A DNA stretch of 64,000 nt, taken from the sequence record MZ501089; one strand, written 5' to 3'. Numbering within the stretch: position 1 is the first letter of the stretch; each line of letters starts with the position of its first letter. Both the position numbers and the translations under genes were made by a program. This stretch comes from Escherichia phage KarlGJung. The notes beneath the pieces were generated by a model. The model searched no databases. It worked only from the letters and a program-made list of their open reading frames with translations, and was not told where the DNA came from. Positions 37,395 to 41,561 of the stretch are shown piece by piece.

Positions 37395-37544
37395 TTACTG
37401 CATGACTGTGATAACTGTCATGATAACACGTTGAATTCCGAACGCAAGAAGACCTCCTGCTACGGCAGGAACAACACCTAAACCCGCCAGTAAAATGCCA
37501 CCAGATACTAATGCAGCGCTTGTGATACCAATGAATGGACTCAT
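37395..37544 (-). CDS. small hydrophobic membrane peptide (about 49 aa)
   Basis: Hand-translated ORF MSPFIGITSAALVSGGILLAGLGVVPAVAGGLLAFGIQRVIM...; ATGA overlap with the gene 52 stop; followed by a terminator hairpin. Confidence 0.3.
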   Translation of the reverse strand: MSPFIGITSAALVSGGILLAGLGVVPAVAGGLLAFGIQRVIMTVITVMQ

Positions 37545-38869
37545 TTGATTTCCTCTAAATCTTTGGTGTATTCTGTAACTACATCAGTAGTTTTCCAATA
37601 TTCGTTTTCTTCTTTTTTGGCTTTAGCTTCTTCAGCAAGTTTCTTTGCTTCGTCGGAAGTCATATGAAAAATGTTCATTCCAACTAGTTTATCAACATAA
37701 GAAGAATACATATCAATTTTAGAAAGTTCTTCGGTCAGTTCTTTGCGAGTTTTACCTTGTACAACAATTTCACCTGAAATTACTTTCTTAATGAAATGTG
37801 CCTTGGCAAAAGCTAAACGAAATGCTGATTCAGTTTCTTTGATTTTGTTATCAATTCGTTTTTGGACATAAGTTTTACGAACTTCAACGAAGTCTTTGAT
37901 TAAATCAACTACATTATCGTAAACTTGCAGCTTTCCTTTCTCATTAATGACGGTAATATTCTGGGAACGACGCTCAATCAACCCGAAGTCTTTCATAATT
38001 TTTGCATGGCGTTCTTCTTCATTATCGCTCAAAGAGTATTCTTTTCGGAATTTAACTTTGAAGCCAAAGCCATGCTCACCACAAGCATCATCCCATGTAA
38101 TGAAGCCTTTATCTTCAAGCGGGTCTAAGATTTTACTCACATAAGTTTCACGATCATACTTATATGGAATCTCAGTGATATGCATTTGAGTTCGTGAAGT
38201 AAACTTATATGTTCCACGAATTTCATATTGCCCATCAATTTCAACGACTTCACCACGAAATTCTGGGAATTCTACCTTCGGTTTAGTTACTTTCTTTCCT
38301 TGAAGAGCTTGCAGTACAGCTTTCTTGACAGAAGAAACACTATGAGGAAGAATGTAAGTTGCATAACCAGTTGCAATACCGGAAACGCCATTAAGAAGAA
38401 CAGTAGGAATAATAGGCAAATAGAAAGCAGGCGGAATGTGTTCTTTATCTTGATGTACTGGAGCATATTCAGTATCTTTATATACGTTATAGAAATTTTT
38501 ACTTACACGAGCAAAAATATAACGACTTGCTGCTGCCTTTTGGACAGTACGAGAACCAAAGTTTCCTTGACCGTCTAACAGAGGAAAGTTATTATTCCAA
38601 GTGTTAGCCATCAAAGCACCTGCGTCTTGCGCAGAGTTTTCACCATGATGATATCCAAGGTCCGCTACACCGCCTGCGATAGAAGCGAGTTTGTGAAACT
38701 TATCTTTATTTCCTCGTGCCAAATCAAGAGCTCGAGCAATAACAAATCGTTGAACTGGCTTAAATCCGTCAATCATATTTGGAATGGCACGATTTTCAAC
38801 CGTGTACATAGCATAAGCCAATGCTTCATTATCAATGATACTTTTTAAATCACGATTATTCAGTTGCAT
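37541..38869 (-). CDS. 52: gp52 DNA topoisomerase II medium subunit (GyrA-like)
   Basis: 442 aa, MQLNNRDLKSIIDNEALAYAMYTVENRAIPNMIDGFKPVQR...; type IIA topoisomerase breakage-reunion domain. Confidence 0.95.
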   Translation of the reverse strand: MQLNNRDLKSIIDNEALAYAMYTVENRAIPNMIDGFKPVQRFVIARALDLARGNKDKFHKLASIAGGVADLGYHHGENSAQDAGALMANTWNNNFPLLDGQGNFGSRTVQKAAASRYIFARVSKNFYNVYKDTEYAPVHQDKEHIPPAFYLPIIPTVLLNGVSGIATGYATYILPHSVSSVKKAVLQALQGKKVTKPKVEFPEFRGEVVEIDGQYEIRGTYKFTSRTQMHITEIPYKYDRETYVSKILDPLEDKGFITWDDACGEHGFGFKVKFRKEYSLSDNEEERHAKIMKDFGLIERRSQNITVINEKGKLQVYDNVVDLIKDFVEVRKTYVQKRIDNKIKETESAFRLAFAKAHFIKKVISGEIVVQGKTRKELTEELSKIDMYSSYVDKLVGMNIFHMTSDEAKKLAEEAKAKKEENEYWKTTDVVTEYTKDLEEIK

Positions 38870-38873
38870 AAAT

Positions 38874-39014
38874 TTACCATACTAGTGAATGTAGTGCCAT
38901 AATAACATCAGAAATGAAAAGCACGACTTGAATTAATCCGAACATTATTCCGTAATATAATGCTATCAATAAAATAGCAAGGGCTAATGAATAGCCCAAG
39001 ATTTTCTTAATCAT
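38874..39014 (-). CDS. small membrane peptide (about 46 aa)
   Basis: Hand-translated ORF MIKKILGYSLALAILLIALYYGIMFGLIQVVLFISDVIMALHSLVW; not in the ORF track. Confidence 0.3.
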   Translation of the reverse strand: MIKKILGYSLALAILLIALYYGIMFGLIQVVLFISDVIMALHSLVW

Positions 39015-39165
39015 TAGTAGATAACAACACAAATGTTAAATATGCACACATACCCTGAGCTAAAGCTTGCGAAAACACACTGCTGGCATCAATACAGATA
39101 GTTAAAACACATGCTACTATCCAACAAATAAATGAAATAACTCCTAATAATTTTGCGATATTCAT
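39007..39165 (-). CDS. small membrane peptide (about 52 aa), ac-like by size and position
   Basis: Hand-translated ORF MNIAKLLGVISFICWIVACVLTICIDASSVF...; lies between stp and gene 52 where T4 ac sits. Confidence 0.3.
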   Translation of the reverse strand: MNIAKLLGVISFICWIVACVLTICIDASSVFSQALAQGMCAYLTFVLLSTND

Positions 39166-39172
39166 ATTTTCC

Positions 39173-39253
39173 TCACTGGCGTCCGAAGACGCCTTTAGTT
39201 TTAAGATTATTACGATAGAACTGCATCACGTGTTCGTTGTGGAAATTACTCAT
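39173..39253 (-). CDS. stp: Stp peptide (26 aa)
   Basis: Hand-translated [26 protein letters not shown], matching the T4 Stp peptide as I recall it; start overlaps the ndd stop (TAATG). Confidence 0.75.
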
Positions 39254-39711
39254 TAATACGCCTGCAAAACGAATTTAAAATTATCAGCCAACATACGGTT
39301 CATTTCTTCAAGTGTTTGATACTCAGAATGATGATTACGAGTAAACGCTAAAGCTAACTGTCCTTTTCCAAATCCCGTCGTCAGAGGTTTCATCTTAGAA
39401 GCAGGCAGATAAAATACTGTGTATACCATATTGTTATTTGCAATAGTACATGCAAGCTGAGACCGACGTTGACGAATATGACTTAGAACTGCACTGAATC
39501 CTTGCTTAGAACGCTGATTACCTACATAAAATCGTGCAGACACACATGGATTACTAAATGGACGACCATCTAATTTACTTACTAAAAAATAAAATCCAGG
39601 TTTAGATAAAATATCTTTATGCGGAGTTCCCAAAAACCACTCACCACCCTTGATTGTACCAATAACAGTAGCGCCTGCATTATTCAGATCAGTAACAGTC
39701 ATGTATTTCAT
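39253..39711 (-). CDS. ndd: Ndd nucleoid disruption protein
   Basis: 151 aa from the ATG ([18 protein letters not shown]...); track start is GTG, 16 codons upstream. Confidence 0.8.
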
Positions 39712-39771
39712 ATTAATTTCCTCTAAATTATTTTCTACTCCAAGGCCGCATGAATACACGCGGCCATTAAA

Positions 39772-39987
39772 TTAATCGTCGCAGTCGACGCTCAATTCCC
39801 AAAACTCTTCTACGGTATAAGTTTCAGTATCATTTTCAATACAGAAACGTTCATTACTGTTATTTGCTAAAGTAGCATTAACTGTCATTTTTTCGCTAGT
39901 GCTCTTAAGAGGTGAAATACGAATTAACTGATCACCGTTATCTAAACAAAAAATTTCACCAACTTTTACATCTTTAAAACTTTTCAT
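39772..39987 (-). CDS. hypothetical protein (71 aa)
   Basis: ORF track; ATG start. Confidence 0.45.
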   Translation of the reverse strand: MKSFKDVKVGEIFCLDNGDQLIRISPLKSTSEKMTVNATLANNSNERFCIENDTETYTVEEFWELSVDCDD

Positions 39988-40102
39988 AATTCACCTCAAG
40001 GAGTATAAAATCCAAACGCAGTTGTTGACCATCCCATCCAATATGGAAAATTTGCACCAATGTAAAACATAAGAATATAAAACCAACCGCTCAGCAAATT
40101 CA

Positions 40103-40300
40103 TCATTTTACACCATTCCAAATTGTTTCAACCACGGATTTTAAACCATTTTGATGAATATCAATTCCGACTACTGTCATCAAATAGATTCCAACTACAA
40201 CTGAACCTAAGGCAAAAATCAGCATGAAAATGAATAAAGCCGGAAAAATATTATCGAAAAACCATTCAATAAATGTAAAAGCACTGCGTTTACGCTTCAT
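40103..40300 (-). CDS. small membrane protein (about 65 aa)
   Basis: ORF track frame trimmed to ATG (MKRKRSAF...) with GAGGAAAA Shine-Dalgarno; one hydrophobic helix. Confidence 0.4.
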   Translation of the reverse strand: MKRKRSAFTFIEWFFDNIFPALFIFMLIFALGSVVVGIYLMTVVGIDIHQNGLKSVVETIWNGVK

Positions 40301-40307
40301 ATTTTCC

Positions 40308-40421
40308 TCACATAAATCCAAAGTAAGCGTTTAATACATCAATCATTAAAACGATTGGGAATATACTCAAAACTACTAGTATTATAACTACATTCCATAT
40401 AGCTTTAACAATCTTTTTCAT
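40308..40421 (-). CDS. small membrane peptide (about 37 aa)
   Basis: ORF track frame trimmed to ATG (MKKIVKAIWNVVIILVVLSIFPIVLM...) with GGAGG Shine-Dalgarno; an early promoter occupies the track's extended N-terminus. Confidence 0.35.
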   Translation of the reverse strand: MKKIVKAIWNVVIILVVLSIFPIVLMIDVLNAYFGFM

Positions 40422-40446
40422 TTTCTGTTCCTCCGTAGTTGATAGG

Positions 40447-40480
40447 GTAATAGTACCACGGAAGAACAGTCTTGTAAACA
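40447..40480 (-). promoter_or_regulatory. early promoter
   Basis: Minus-sense (T)GTTTAC, 18 nt, TACTAT. Confidence 0.5.
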
Positions 40481-40664
40481 ACTTTTTTAAAAATATTCGT
40501 AATAAATGTGAATACCAACTACTACCGCTGAAACCTGTGCAACCAACCACGCACAAGCAATAAGTACAGAATTCAAAATTTTCATAATAACCTCATTACA
40601 AAAGTAAATGTTAAACAAATTAATGGAATACTAATTAACCAAACAAAACACCACCATAATGAAC

Positions 40665-40928
40665 TCATAGTTCAATCTCAGCGATTTTCATTTCATTATT
40701 GTTAATAGCATTTTTAAGACTATCCGAAAGAATTACATTCCAGTGGTCATTCATATGACCATTAACTAAGCGTGTAATTTCTTCGGGAGTTGAAAAATAA
40801 GGCGTATCAGACTCCCAATGCGATAATCCTAAGCGAGTATAAATCATGCCTTCATCATCGCTAGAATATTCAACTGACACAAACTCATCAGTTATTTTAT
40901 GTTTAACGTAAAAGAACTTAAATTTCAT
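40665..40928 (-). CDS. hypothetical protein (87 aa)
   Basis: ORF track; ATG start with GGAGG Shine-Dalgarno; strong early promoter upstream. Confidence 0.5.
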   Translation of the reverse strand: MKFKFFYVKHKITDEFVSVEYSSDDEGMIYTRLGLSHWESDTPYFSTPEEITRLVNGHMNDHWNVILSDSLKNAINNNEMKIAEIEL

Positions 40929-40953
40929 TTTCTGTTCCTCCGTAGTTGATAGT

Positions 40954-40987
40954 TGTATAGTACCACGGTCCTTGTGGTATGTAAACT
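40954..40987 (-). promoter_or_regulatory. early promoter
   Basis: Minus-sense (A)GTTTAC, 18 nt, TACTAT, with an A/T-rich upstream tract; drives ORF 40665..40928. Confidence 0.55.
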
Positions 40988-41003: not shown

Positions 41004-41561
41004 TTAAATGGAAAGATACCATCCGCTGTAGTTGCTTTTTCTTACAACTTTACGAAGGTCTTCTCTGTCACCGATGAACTTCGGAGTGTACTGGATGACA
41101 CCTGGATGAATTTCTTTAGTGTTGAATATAATTATACAGTCGGCGACTTGATGATTTAGAATGGGCCCTAGATTTATTCCAGAACCATATTGATACTCTC
41201 CGCTGCATCCCGTTGTTACCGAAATCCAACGCGAGTCAGTTTGATGTGTCTTAACTTCTACGCGAAGCCCACAGTATTTTGGATGTGCTAAAACATCCCA
41301 TGCATATGTGTACGGATCATCGACATCTTCTTGGCCTTTATTGACATATCCGCTTAGCCAATCTGCCACGAAAAACTCGGCGTACACAGCGATACGGCAT
41401 CTTTCGATAACTTCTGCCTTATCCTGATTTGGGTTTTGTTTTAAAGAGTATCTTGCAGTATCAGCAATTTTGACCTTCATTTCACTAGTCAAGTCACTGT
41501 TCGATAGGGTAAATGACGGAATCTGAAATAGTCTCTGCAAACCCGGATTCGTTTTCTGCAT
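41004..41561 (-). CDS. denB: endonuclease IV
   Basis: 185-aa ORF MQKTNPGLQRLFQIPSF...; matches T4 DenB size and position between ndd and rIIB. Confidence 0.85.
   Translation of the reverse strand: MQKTNPGLQRLFQIPSFTLSNSDLTSEMKVKIADTARYSLKQNPNQDKAEVIERCRIAVYAEFFVADWLSGYVNKGQEDVDDPYTYAWDVLAHPKYCGLRVEVKTHQTDSRWISVTTGCSGEYQYGSGINLGPILNHQVADCIIIFNTKEIHPGVIQYTPKFIGDREDLRKVVRKSNYSGWYLSI

Follow-up and report, generated by a model that had tools for sequence, protein, structure and literature searches.

A Tequatrovirus block of small hydrophobic early genes between gene 52 and denB in Escherichia phage KarlGJung

The cluster of small genes between gene 52 and denB is already known from the map of phage T4, where it has stood for decades, and from curated families. 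The products of ndd.1-ndd.6 are given as 'unknown' in Kutter 2018 (PMC6071114) and in the CRISPRi-ART annotation table, in agreement with an earlier note on this DNA that called such peptides largely uncharacterised. T4 transcripts of all genes of the block are classed as 'early' (PMC9697503, Table S2), and the T4 ndd.1 protein has been seen early by proteomics. The T4 deletion saΔ9, which runs from 52.1 to denB, removes the stimulation of phosphatidylglycerol (PG) synthesis (PMC6071114); this phenotype maps to a deletion of 11-12 genes and not to a single peptide. Expression of Ac makes E. coli sensitive to acriflavine and ampicillin, for which a mechanism through AcrAB-TolC has been proposed (10.1101/2025.06.30.662393), and the substitution G38R in T4 Ac leads to resistance. 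Promoter-early stem-loop (PeSL) cassettes are likewise known in T4-type phages (Arbiol et al. 2010, PMC2839356; Comeau et al. 2014, PMC4122927).

The KarlGJung locus and its T4 counterpart

The window, a 64,000-nucleotide stretch of the KarlGJung record MZ501089, is Tequatrovirus DNA with 96-98% identity to T4, RB14 and G9062. The minus strand carries every gene of the interval studied here (Table 1). Within 38874-40668 lie seven ORFs that encode hydrophobic products and measure 28-65 codons (52.1, ac, ndd.2, ndd.2a, ndd.4, ndd.5 and ndd.6), and with them stp, ndd and ndd.1, which are hydrophilic. The earlier note had counted at least six such ORFs between gene 52 and denB; its cluster boundaries coincide with the 52.1 stop and the ndd.6 start, and six of the seven do fall below the ORF-track cut-off at its default of 60 aa.

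A profile search found a PHROG family for every ORF, and 52.1, stp and ndd.2a also have Pfam matches above cut-off, while NCBIfam returned no match for the ten small proteins. The match of Ac to its PHROG covers residues 1-51 (E 3.7e-25). The position between gene 52 and denB and the single coding strand match the ORF maps of annotated relatives, and the products of 52.1, ac, stp, ndd.2, ndd.4, ndd.5 and ndd.6 align end to end with their T4/RB14 namesakes at 92-100% amino acid identity. We consider it highly probable that this interval is orthologous to a non-essential block of T4 early genes, 52.1-ac-stp-ndd-ndd.1-ndd.2-ndd.2a(+ndd.3)-ndd.4-ndd.5-ndd.6, a judgement made jointly with the steps of expression and action proposed below. 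In the T4 reference (NC_000866, 165209-166996), order, strand and neighbours (gene 52, denB) are all as here, the genes are annotated one for one, and an early promoter likewise precedes ndd.4. The cluster therefore carries no weight as the discovery that the earlier note had suggested; it poses a compact question, seven conserved early membrane micro-proteins in the best-studied phage.

Several differences from T4 are evident. Ac is identical to T4 Ac except for one additional Thr close to the C terminus. T4 carries a frameshifted ndd.3 and ndd.2a, whereas KarlGJung has a single ndd.2a that matches both T4 fragments as well as the 65-aa RB14 protein, a length kept in 15 of 16 relatives. The split in the T4 reference follows from a 1-nt deletion in codon 2 of ndd.2a, and the 'ndd.3' of T4 seems to be an artefact of a frameshift. 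An 87-aa gene (orf87), annotated in RB14 and RB69, lies between denB and ndd.6 in KarlGJung but is missing from T4, which retains its last 33 nt only. Several records mislabel genes of the block as 'naphthalene dioxygenase'. Among the hydrophilic genes, Stp is predicted by its family to activate the host PrrC anticodon nuclease and is identical to T4 Stp at 26/26 residues; ndd has a pN/pS of 0.09.

Table 1. Features of the block and its flanks in KarlGJung (window coordinates)
Feature	Coordinates	Strand	Description
gene 52 (topoisomerase)	37541-38869	-	one flank of the block
52.1	38874..39014	-	46 aa; PHROG 3595 (E 8e-25); Pfam DUF7396, 78 bits (cut-off 27)
ac (acridine sensitivity/resistance locus)	39007..39165	-	52-aa membrane peptide; PHROG 2501
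stp	39173..39253	-	26 aa, hydrophilic; Pfam PF08133, 75.3 bits (cut-off 25), residues 1-26
ndd	39253..39711	-	soluble nucleoid disruption protein of 152 aa; orthologues annotated in T4 and RB14, among others
stem-loop GGCCGCGUG-UAUU-CAUGCGGCC	39744..39765	-	intergenic, ndd.1/ndd
ndd.1	39772..39987	-	71 aa, acidic, soluble, non-hydrophobic; PHROG 2183
ndd.2	39996..40106	-	36 aa, aromatic-rich, hydrophobic; PHROG 4135
ndd.2a	40103..40300	-	65 aa; PHROG 2401; Pfam DUF7248
ndd.4	40308..40421	-	37 aa, single hydrophobic helix; PHROG 3098
ndd.4 cassette, PeSL type	40419..40479	-	early promoter, stem, SD, ATG
ndd.5	40487..40585	-	32 aa, hydrophobic; PHROG 5011
ndd.6	40582..40668	-	28 aa, hydrophobic; PHROG 8851; no SD
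orf87 (RB14ncORF269c / RB69ORF270c family)	40665..40928	-	87 aa, soluble; PHROG 2390
orf87 cassette	40926..40986	-	second early-promoter cassette; promoter 40986-40957
denB (endonuclease IV)	41004-41561	-	other flank of the block

Coding status of the small frames

The small ORFs might be chance frames in T-rich DNA without functional peptides, as T makes up 37% of the coding strand and codons rich in T specify Phe, Leu and Ile. However, composition does not reproduce the cluster. GRAVY is positive in all seven small ORFs (0.62-1.80), and six contain a 19-residue window with a mean Kyte-Doolittle hydropathy of 2.3-3.05. These six pass the hydropathy threshold, whereas 500 dinucleotide shuffles give on average 0.39 such ORFs and at most 3, none of them reaching six, and coding coverage on one strand is 92% compared with 28% in the shuffles. 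The whole window has nine ORFs of this kind, of which six are concentrated in this 1.8 kb.

The frames are also conserved, in line with the check that the earlier note proposed. They remain intact across 16 relatives taken from GenBank phage records (an IMG/VR scan with Ndd gave only five loci), with two frameshifts only in about 110 gene copies; 52.1, ndd.2, ndd.4 and ndd.5 are intact in 16/16 loci and ndd.6 in 15/16. The variable sites are distributed 20/9/64 over the three codon positions and the pooled pN/pS is 0.117; the third-position bias and the low ratio both count against chance frames. In six of the seven small genes pN/pS lies between 0.02 and 0.23, including ac (0.017), ndd.5 (0.055, the third position accounting for 10 of its 12 variable sites), ndd.2a (0.07) and ndd.2 (0.16). 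In 4 relatives ATA stands in place of the first ndd.2 ATG, which makes the second Met a possible start.

Four of the peptides reach other genera: 52.1, ac, ndd.4 and ndd.6 are kept in RB69 (Mosigvirus) and/or IME08 (Dhakavirus) at 34-89% amino acid identity, although nucleotide identity to these phages is 70-85%. The identities are 89% (IME08) and 72% (RB69) for 52.1, 34% (RB69) for Ac, 56% (IME08) for ndd.4, and 54% (RB69) and 40% (IME08) for ndd.6, whereas ndd.2, ndd.2a and ndd.5 were found within Tequatrovirus only. The motif SVFxQAxxQG, which includes Gly38, is common to Ac, its RB69 homologue and the 'ac2' paralogues; an all-against-all comparison of the peptides found no paralogy outside this ac family. 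By tblastn, 52.1 is present in 709 phage records. Some of the RB69/IME08 homologues lack annotation there, namely ndd.4 in IME08 and ndd.6 in both phages.

The chance reading retains some points in its favour. Several of the small genes are omitted in many GenBank records, and ndd.4 alone lacks a synonymous excess, its four variable sites all being conservative replacements (pN/pS >1). The case for ndd.4 as a coding gene depends on its cross-genus conservation: of 595 phage records that carry it, about 100 are from other genera at 55-80% identity. An RNA element overlapping ndd.4 was considered for the lack of synonymous change there and the low diversity of 40620-40230, and was set aside with the promoter-cassette stem as its sole support; a recent recombinational sweep is equally likely. 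In a time-resolved T4 proteome the products of 52.1, ac, stp and ndd.2-ndd.6 are all missing (Class_P = NA), as chance frames would predict, but such a miss is expected for short hydrophobic peptides, and translation of the frames stands as a prediction; a literature search found no T4 ribosome-profiling data. Shuffles, codon-position bias and cross-genus conservation nevertheless refute chance frames in large part, and we regard them as extremely improbable. The sequence comparisons support the small ORFs as real genes for hydrophobic helical peptides under purifying selection.

Promoters, stem-loops and a proposed coupling of translation

Shine-Dalgarno (SD) sequences of the form GAGG/GGAGGA lie 4-7 nt upstream of ac (GAGGA), ndd.2a, ndd.4 (GGAGGA) and ndd.5 (GAGG), and are strong in all four. 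The earlier note had given every ORF its own SD, which is borne out for these four; ndd.2 is preceded by a weak GGTG only, and 52.1 and ndd.6 have none. The genes that lack an SD start inside the stop or end of the gene before: 52.1 begins with an 8-nt overlap with the end of ac, and the ndd.6 ATG overlaps the orf87 stop (ATGA). Their peptides would be translated through termination-reinitiation coupling. The same ATGA overlap joins ndd.2 to ndd.2a and ndd.5 to ndd.6, and stp starts in a TAATG overlap with the ndd stop, so that the small genes form tightly packed translation units. The ndd.6 homologue of RB69 begins within the stop of its orf87 counterpart, and that of IME08 comes immediately after its own.

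With neighbouring genes overlapping at start and stop or lying 4-8 nt apart all along the block, translation itself could be what matters, the small genes being spacer cistrons that shield early RNA (Rho, RegB, RNase E) and feed ribosomes to gene 52, ndd and ndd.1. Gene 52 has no obvious SD and lies 4 nt after 52.1, and CRISPRi knock-down of the small genes in T4 has no fitness effect, both as this explanation would have it. However, spacers require only open frames, whereas here the amino acid sequences are conserved, as the pN/pS of six of the seven genes and the cross-genus identities indicate. Moreover, the point mutation G38R in Ac has a phenotype, and transposon insertions in T4 52.1 (16/16 sites tolerated) leave the essential gene 52 unimpaired. 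Spacer cistrons are accordingly very unlikely, and we favour functional peptides.

Scanning for the early-promoter pattern GTTTAC-N16-18-TANNAT located one promoter inside the interval, at 40479-40450 (GTTTAC…TACTAT) preceding ndd.4, and a second of the same form just outside, preceding orf87. The suggestion that several of the ORFs have their own early promoter is correct for ndd.4 and otherwise overstated. The window holds 18 promoters of the type TTTACW-N17-TAYWAT where 0.74 would be expected, and every one is on the minus strand. The ndd.4 cassette, labelled a T4 early promoter in ASO78A, contains a 15-bp stem in which 40469-40455 pairs with 40439-40425, covering the -10 box and pairing with the SD (-22.9 kcal/mol, z -4.1). 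Relatives show only G-C to G-U changes in this stem; the exception is RB14, IMGVR1 and IMGVR3, where the end pair is lost to a G-to-C change of the terminal base. In the orf87 cassette, the 5′UTR with SD and ATG (40952-40926) repeats the ndd.4 5′UTR exactly over 27 nt, a copy unique to KarlGJung among 17 aligned genomes, and the stem has 7 bp only (z -1.1).

Further downstream, the ndd.1/ndd stem-loop is annotated as a terminator in ASO78A; the fold of 39730-39790 has -25.4 kcal/mol (z -4.2), and the stem is kept in relatives through C-G to U-G changes and one two-sided change (ASO78A). The 3′ end of stp carries a GGCGTC-UUCG-GACGCC hairpin in a region that folds with z -3.5. An Rfam scan of the whole window found no family at threshold. 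In the resulting order, the cassette at 40986 precedes orf87-ndd.6-ndd.5, a promoter-proximal unit with orf87 as its first gene, and the cassette at 40479 precedes ndd.4-ndd.2a-ndd.2-ndd.1, after which come the stem-loop and ndd-stp-ac-52.1-gene 52.

Possible roles at the host membrane and known systems

AlphaFold2 (AF2) single-sequence models, made without a membrane, give confident lone helices for 52.1 (residues 2-45, pLDDT 94) and ndd.2a (residues 5-64, pLDDT 90). These long single helices speak against helical hairpins for both, though as weak evidence. The ndd.2a peptide combines a basic N terminus (MKRKRS), a hydrophobic core of about 26 residues and an amphipathic tail. We propose that the peptides would insert into the host inner membrane in the first minutes of infection, where each would attach to a host target, either a membrane protein or a step of lipid synthesis, and tune its activity. 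Ac would be the worked example, making infected cells acridine-sensitive, as proposed through a block of AcrAB-TolC efflux, and the PG stimulation lost in saΔ9 may be due to one or several genes of the block. The small genes, non-essential by transposon sequencing of T4, would be accessory, of benefit on certain natural hosts or under certain conditions and not needed on laboratory E. coli.

Early expression and the membrane phenotypes of the nearby rII and ac loci would also suit envelope-directed exclusion or lysis-timing factors (Imm, Sp, RI-like), or small lipoproteins or outer-membrane proteins. The T4 annotation 'predicted outer membrane/periplasmic' for ndd.2, ndd.5 and ndd.6 points in this direction, as does a lipobox-like LIAC at residues 8-11 of ndd.5. 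However, ndd.2 has no Cys, ndd.6 has no [AGS]-C, and the ndd.5 Cys, at residue 11, is too near the N terminus for the lipoprotein signal peptide rule (PROSITE PS51257). A beta-barrel is also out of reach for chains of 28-37 residues that consist of one hydrophobic helix. On both counts, the lipoprotein or outer-membrane identity of ndd.2, ndd.5 and ndd.6 (28-36 aa) was rejected. Searches of PHROGs, Pfam and NCBIfam found no match to exclusion, holin, antiholin or defence families (Imm, Sp and others), and the accessible part of the HIDEN-SEQ comparison gives no conditional phenotype (q = 1). We therefore find envelope or lysis factors very improbable. The earlier note's view of the peptides as host-takeover or exclusion factors goes beyond the evidence: a phenotype is on record for Ac only, and the others are non-essential in T4.

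In a more specific form of the inner-membrane proposal, the block would be a toolbox of plug-in peptides, independent single helices directed each at its own host inner-membrane machine (Ac at AcrB; one of 52.1/ndd.2-ndd.6 at phospholipid synthesis, which would explain the PG effect of saΔ9) and swapped by way of the flanking promoter cassettes. We offer this tentatively, as a possibility that is somewhat doubtful. Positional replacement at ac supports peptide exchange between phages: IME08 has a non-homologous 53-aa hydrophobic ORF at the ac position, and Aplg8 and pSs-1 carry a tandem ac paralogue. Beside the block stand a lipid phenotype mapped to the region as a whole and a single lead towards an efflux pump. 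The comparative priorities are 52.1 and ndd.4, which are conserved across genera, and ndd.6, which is coupled to orf87 in every case.

AcrZ is a small inner-membrane regulator of E. coli (49 aa) that binds AcrB. The block peptides resemble it in size and in their single hydrophobic helix and, for Ac, in the proposed action on the same efflux pump; they differ in that AcrZ assists the pump, whereas Ac is proposed to inhibit it. A pairwise comparison of Ac with AcrZ gave no match. Homology of 52.1 to AcrZ was rejected as a compositional match over 20 residues, obtained with composition correction off.

The cassettes resemble PeSLs in the TTTACW-N17-TAYWAT promoter, in the stem-loop over the -10 box (ndd.4 cassette), in the 3′ SD and ATG, and in adjoining genes gained or lost among close relatives. 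This turnover includes the absence of orf87 from T4, an extra gene in the orf87 5′UTR in RB14 and Kelasse, and the converted 5′UTR in KarlGJung. In the PeSL papers the stems are described as terminators or attenuators (PMC2839356, PMC4122927). In contrast, the 3′ arm of the ndd.4 stem is the SD itself, so the ndd.4 ribosome site would be paired in read-through RNA and unpaired in RNA from its own promoter.

Gene order and coding status of the block

We compiled the genes from gene 52 to denB from listed ORFs together with the reverse-strand sequence. A megablast search with 38700-41700 matches 575 GenBank phage records, nearly all Tequatrovirus, led by vB_EcoM_G9062 (98%), RB14 (96.7%) and T4 (~96%). 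The order annotated in RB14, G9062 and T4 (52, 52.1, ac, stp, ndd, ndd.1, ndd.2, ndd.2a(/ndd.3), ndd.4, ndd.5, ndd.6, extra ORFs, denB) is reproduced exactly, on a single strand throughout. The interval is the T4 gene block itself, and the finding is therefore already known. The earlier note's count of six or more ORFs here, each 28-65 codons long, is correct, as seven hydrophobic ORFs of 28-65 aa are present, and its coordinates agree with the outermost gene boundaries. Directly across gene 52 and outside that interval, motA.1 encodes another small membrane-type peptide, overlapping the gene 52 stop.

Genes of the block and other features located in this phage and its relatives
Feature	Coordinates	Strand	Remarks
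52.1	38874-39014	minus	46 aa, hydrophobic
ac	39007-39165	minus	52 aa, hydrophobic
stp	39173-39253	minus	26 aa, hydrophilic
ndd	39253-39711	minus	152 aa, hydrophilic
ndd.1	39772-39987	minus	71 aa, hydrophilic
ndd.2	39996-40106	minus	36 aa, hydrophobic
ndd.2a	40103-40300	minus	65 aa, hydrophobic
ndd.4	40308-40421	minus	37 aa, hydrophobic
ndd.5	40487-40585	minus	32 aa, hydrophobic
ndd.6	40582-40668	minus	28 aa, hydrophobic
87-aa ORF	40665-40928	minus	soluble
denB	41004-41561	minus	185 aa, flank
motA.1	37395-37544	minus	49 aa, Gly/Ala-rich, hydrophobic
Early-promoter sites, examples	3451-3422, 6494-6465, 19930-19901, 40479-40450, 49554-49525, 50625-50596	minus	of 18 sites
ac2 paralogue	777-932 in Aplg8; 777-932 in pSs-1		
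IME08 (NC_014260) small genes	3509-3348, 4824-4702, 4961-4887, 3597-3517		unannotated
RB69 ndd.6-like gene	4966-4880		unannotated

GRAVY values of the seven hydrophobic peptides span 0.62-1.80, and six of them reach a 19-residue window hydropathy of 2.3-3.05. That such ORFs arose by chance is refuted by shuffle and selection tests alike. In 500 dinucleotide-preserving shuffles, small hydrophobic ORFs average 0.39 with a maximum of 3, against 6 observed in the interval, and ORFs cover on average 28% of one strand, against 92%. The whole 64-kb window holds nine ORFs meeting the same criteria, six of them in this interval. In homologous regions from 16 Tequatrovirus genomes (11 from GenBank, 5 from IMG/VR), codon positions 1, 2 and 3 of the seven ORFs hold 20, 9 and 64 variable sites, and pN/pS is 0.117 pooled, ranging from 0.017 (ac) to 0.23 (52.1). 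The exception is ndd.4, which has just four variable sites, every one a conservative replacement. Synonymous change is nearly absent from ndd.4, and the tract 40620-40230 (ndd.6, ndd.5, ndd.4 and the 5′ half of ndd.2a) is unusually uniform among 17 genomes (pi 0.01-0.02 versus 0.03-0.08 nearby), which could reflect a recent sweep or additional constraint.

Conservation of the frames across T-even phages, a check suggested in the earlier note, is borne out within Tequatrovirus: the seven ORFs are unbroken and of equal length in all 16 loci, apart from a 2-nt insertion at the ndd.6 end in one IMG/VR contig and a one-base deletion in codon 2 of T4 ndd.2a (ATGAAGCGT to ATGAACGT). Because of this deletion, the T4 reference (NC_000866; 2433-2629 of the extracted locus) splits the gene into 'ndd.3' and 'ndd.2a'. 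The unsplit 65-aa form is found in this phage, 15 other Tequatroviruses and T4 'wild' (KJ477684); T4 ndd.3 is a PHROG singleton and probably a frameshift artefact or lab-strain mutation.

Outside the genus, 52.1 (present in 709 records) is 89% identical in IME08, a Dhakavirus, and 72% in RB69, a Mosigvirus. The ndd.4 protein retains 56% identity in IME08, with ~100 records at 55-80% from Dhakavirus and Enterobacter or Edwardsiella phages; ac is 34% identical to its RB69 counterpart. ndd.6 (54% in RB69, 40% in IME08) is unannotated in both and always immediately follows the 87-aa ORF homologue. Homologues of ndd.2a, ndd.5 and ndd.2 were found in Tequatrovirus only. All ten small proteins match PHROG families end to end, and for 52.1 (DUF7396), stp (PF08133) and ndd.2a (DUF7248) the Pfam cut-offs are exceeded as well; NCBIfam gives zero matches for the ten.

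At the ac position, IME08 has an unannotated 53-aa ORF, hydrophobic and non-homologous, preceded by a strong Shine-Dalgarno (SD) sequence, and its ndd.4-like, ndd.6-like and stp genes are also unannotated. In several GenBank records (NC_054927 (Ozark), MW749001 (Kelasse), NC_054905, NC_054922, OP137232) the 37-aa ndd.4 or 71-aa ndd.1 bears the name 'naphthalene 1,2-dioxygenase', an evident propagated error.

Translation signals and promoter cassettes

Strong SD sequences precede ac, ndd.2a, ndd.4 and ndd.5, and likewise ndd, ndd.1 and the 87-aa ORF; that of ndd.2 is weak, and 52.1, stp and ndd.6 have none. These last three overlap the upstream gene end, 52.1 by 8 nt, stp in TAATG and ndd.6 in ATGA; the ndd.5 and ndd.2 starts are ATGA overlaps too. 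The T4 early-promoter pattern GTTTAC-N16-18-TANNAT has 18 occurrences in the window, versus 0.74 expected, and every one is on the minus strand. The interval itself contains just one site, preceding ndd.4 (40479-40450), and another falls immediately beyond it, preceding the 87-aa ORF (40986-40957); both are marked as early promoters in the ASO78A annotation. The claim that each ORF has its own SD is therefore overstated, with a strong SD before four of the seven and a weak one before ndd.2, as is that of several early promoters, one of the two lying outside. The architecture is two strings, probably coupled in translation, each led by a promoter. Between ndd.1 and ndd lies a stable stem-loop (39765-39744).

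At the ndd.4 promoter, a 15-bp stem (40469-40455 paired with 40439-40425; -22.9 kcal/mol, z -4.1) covers the -10 box, with the ndd.4 SD as its 3′ arm. The element is a 'promoter-early stem-loop' (PeSL) cassette, a type whose promoter in the T4/PST pair reads TTTACW-N17-TAYWAT (Arbiol et al., PMC2839356; Comeau et al., PMC4122927). The ndd.4 SD would be paired in read-through RNA from upstream and unpaired in RNA from its own promoter. Several other early promoters in the window have a like layout, and many carry a hairpin whose 5′ arm lies in the -35/-10 spacer and whose 3′ arm falls within the transcribed leader, where it covers the SD at some sites.

The 87-aa ORF and ndd.4 share one 27-nt sequence, repeated exactly, as their 5′UTR, SD and ATG: CTATCAACTACGGAGGAACAGAAAATG (40926-40952 and 40419-40445, minus strand). 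Among 17 aligned genomes, this one alone has the ndd.4-type sequence before the 87-aa ORF, a pattern suggestive of conversion involving the two promoter cassettes. The denB-ndd.6 space differs among relatives, consistent with PeSL-mediated shuffling: T4 lacks the 87-aa ORF, and RB14 and Kelasse have an additional gene within its 5′UTR. This insertion, the 68-aa RB32ORF266c (2732-2938 and 2297-2602 of the respective loci), sits between two SD-like copies and marks the junction as a hot spot of gene gain and loss.

Proposed function and comparison with T4

The hydrophobic peptide genes of the block are real and conserved, lie downstream of early promoters and have a coupled, operon-like layout; their early transcription is taken from the T4 literature. 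In T4 time-resolved omics, 52.1, ac, stp and ndd.2-ndd.6 transcripts are 'early' and their proteins undetected; Ndd and Ndd.1 are detected (PMC9697503, Table S2). HIDEN-SEQ transposon sequencing scores 52.1 and ndd.1-ndd.6 as non-essential (insertions tolerated at 16/16 sites in 52.1 and 18/18 in ndd.4), and CRISPRi-ART lists 52.1, ac, stp and ndd-ndd.6 as 'Not Fit', with function 'Unknown' in its annotation table.

We propose that the peptides would insert into the inner membrane and act by binding host membrane proteins. Single-sequence AF2 models of 52.1 (residues 2-45, pLDDT 94) and ndd.2a (residues 5-64, pLDDT 90) are each one unbroken helix, and for this reason a single membrane pass flanked by juxtamembrane extensions seems somewhat likelier than a hairpin. 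The sole worked case of the proposed action is Ac on AcrAB-TolC. According to a 2025 preprint (10.1101/2025.06.30.662393), expressing Ac makes E. coli sensitive to acriflavine and to ampicillin, Δac phage are resistant, G38R also confers resistance, and Ac is proposed to enter the membrane and obstruct AcrAB-TolC, a reading restated in a 2026 PNAS paper. The preprint describes Ac as two short helices hinged at D26-A27. Gly38 lies in a segment, SVFxQAxxQG, common to T4-type Ac, RB69 Ac and the tandem 'ac2' of Aplg8 and pSs-1. That the ORFs are spacer cistrons, in which translation alone matters, is contradicted by this point mutant and by amino-acid conservation. Old T4 annotation suggests envelope proteins or lipoproteins; against these, and against exclusion proteins, stand the lack of a match to any such family in PHROGs, Pfam or NCBIfam and chains that are too short, and a proper lipobox is absent. 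One member of the block would account for the lipid phenotype of saΔ9, in which deletion of 52.1 through denB abolishes T4-induced stimulation of phosphatidylglycerol synthesis (Kutter et al. 2018, PMC6071114); the same authors call the ndd.1-ndd.6 products unknown.

Some Tequatroviruses carry ac2, an RB69-type paralogue, between ac and stp. Most of this paralogue is deleted in ASO78A and YUEEL01 (about 809-863 of the loci), where the stp 3′ end is joined to the remnant, altering the Stp C terminus.

Compared with the T4 reference, the differences of this phage are minor: an unsplit ndd.2a, one additional Thr in Ac, the additional 87-aa gene and the converted 5′UTR.
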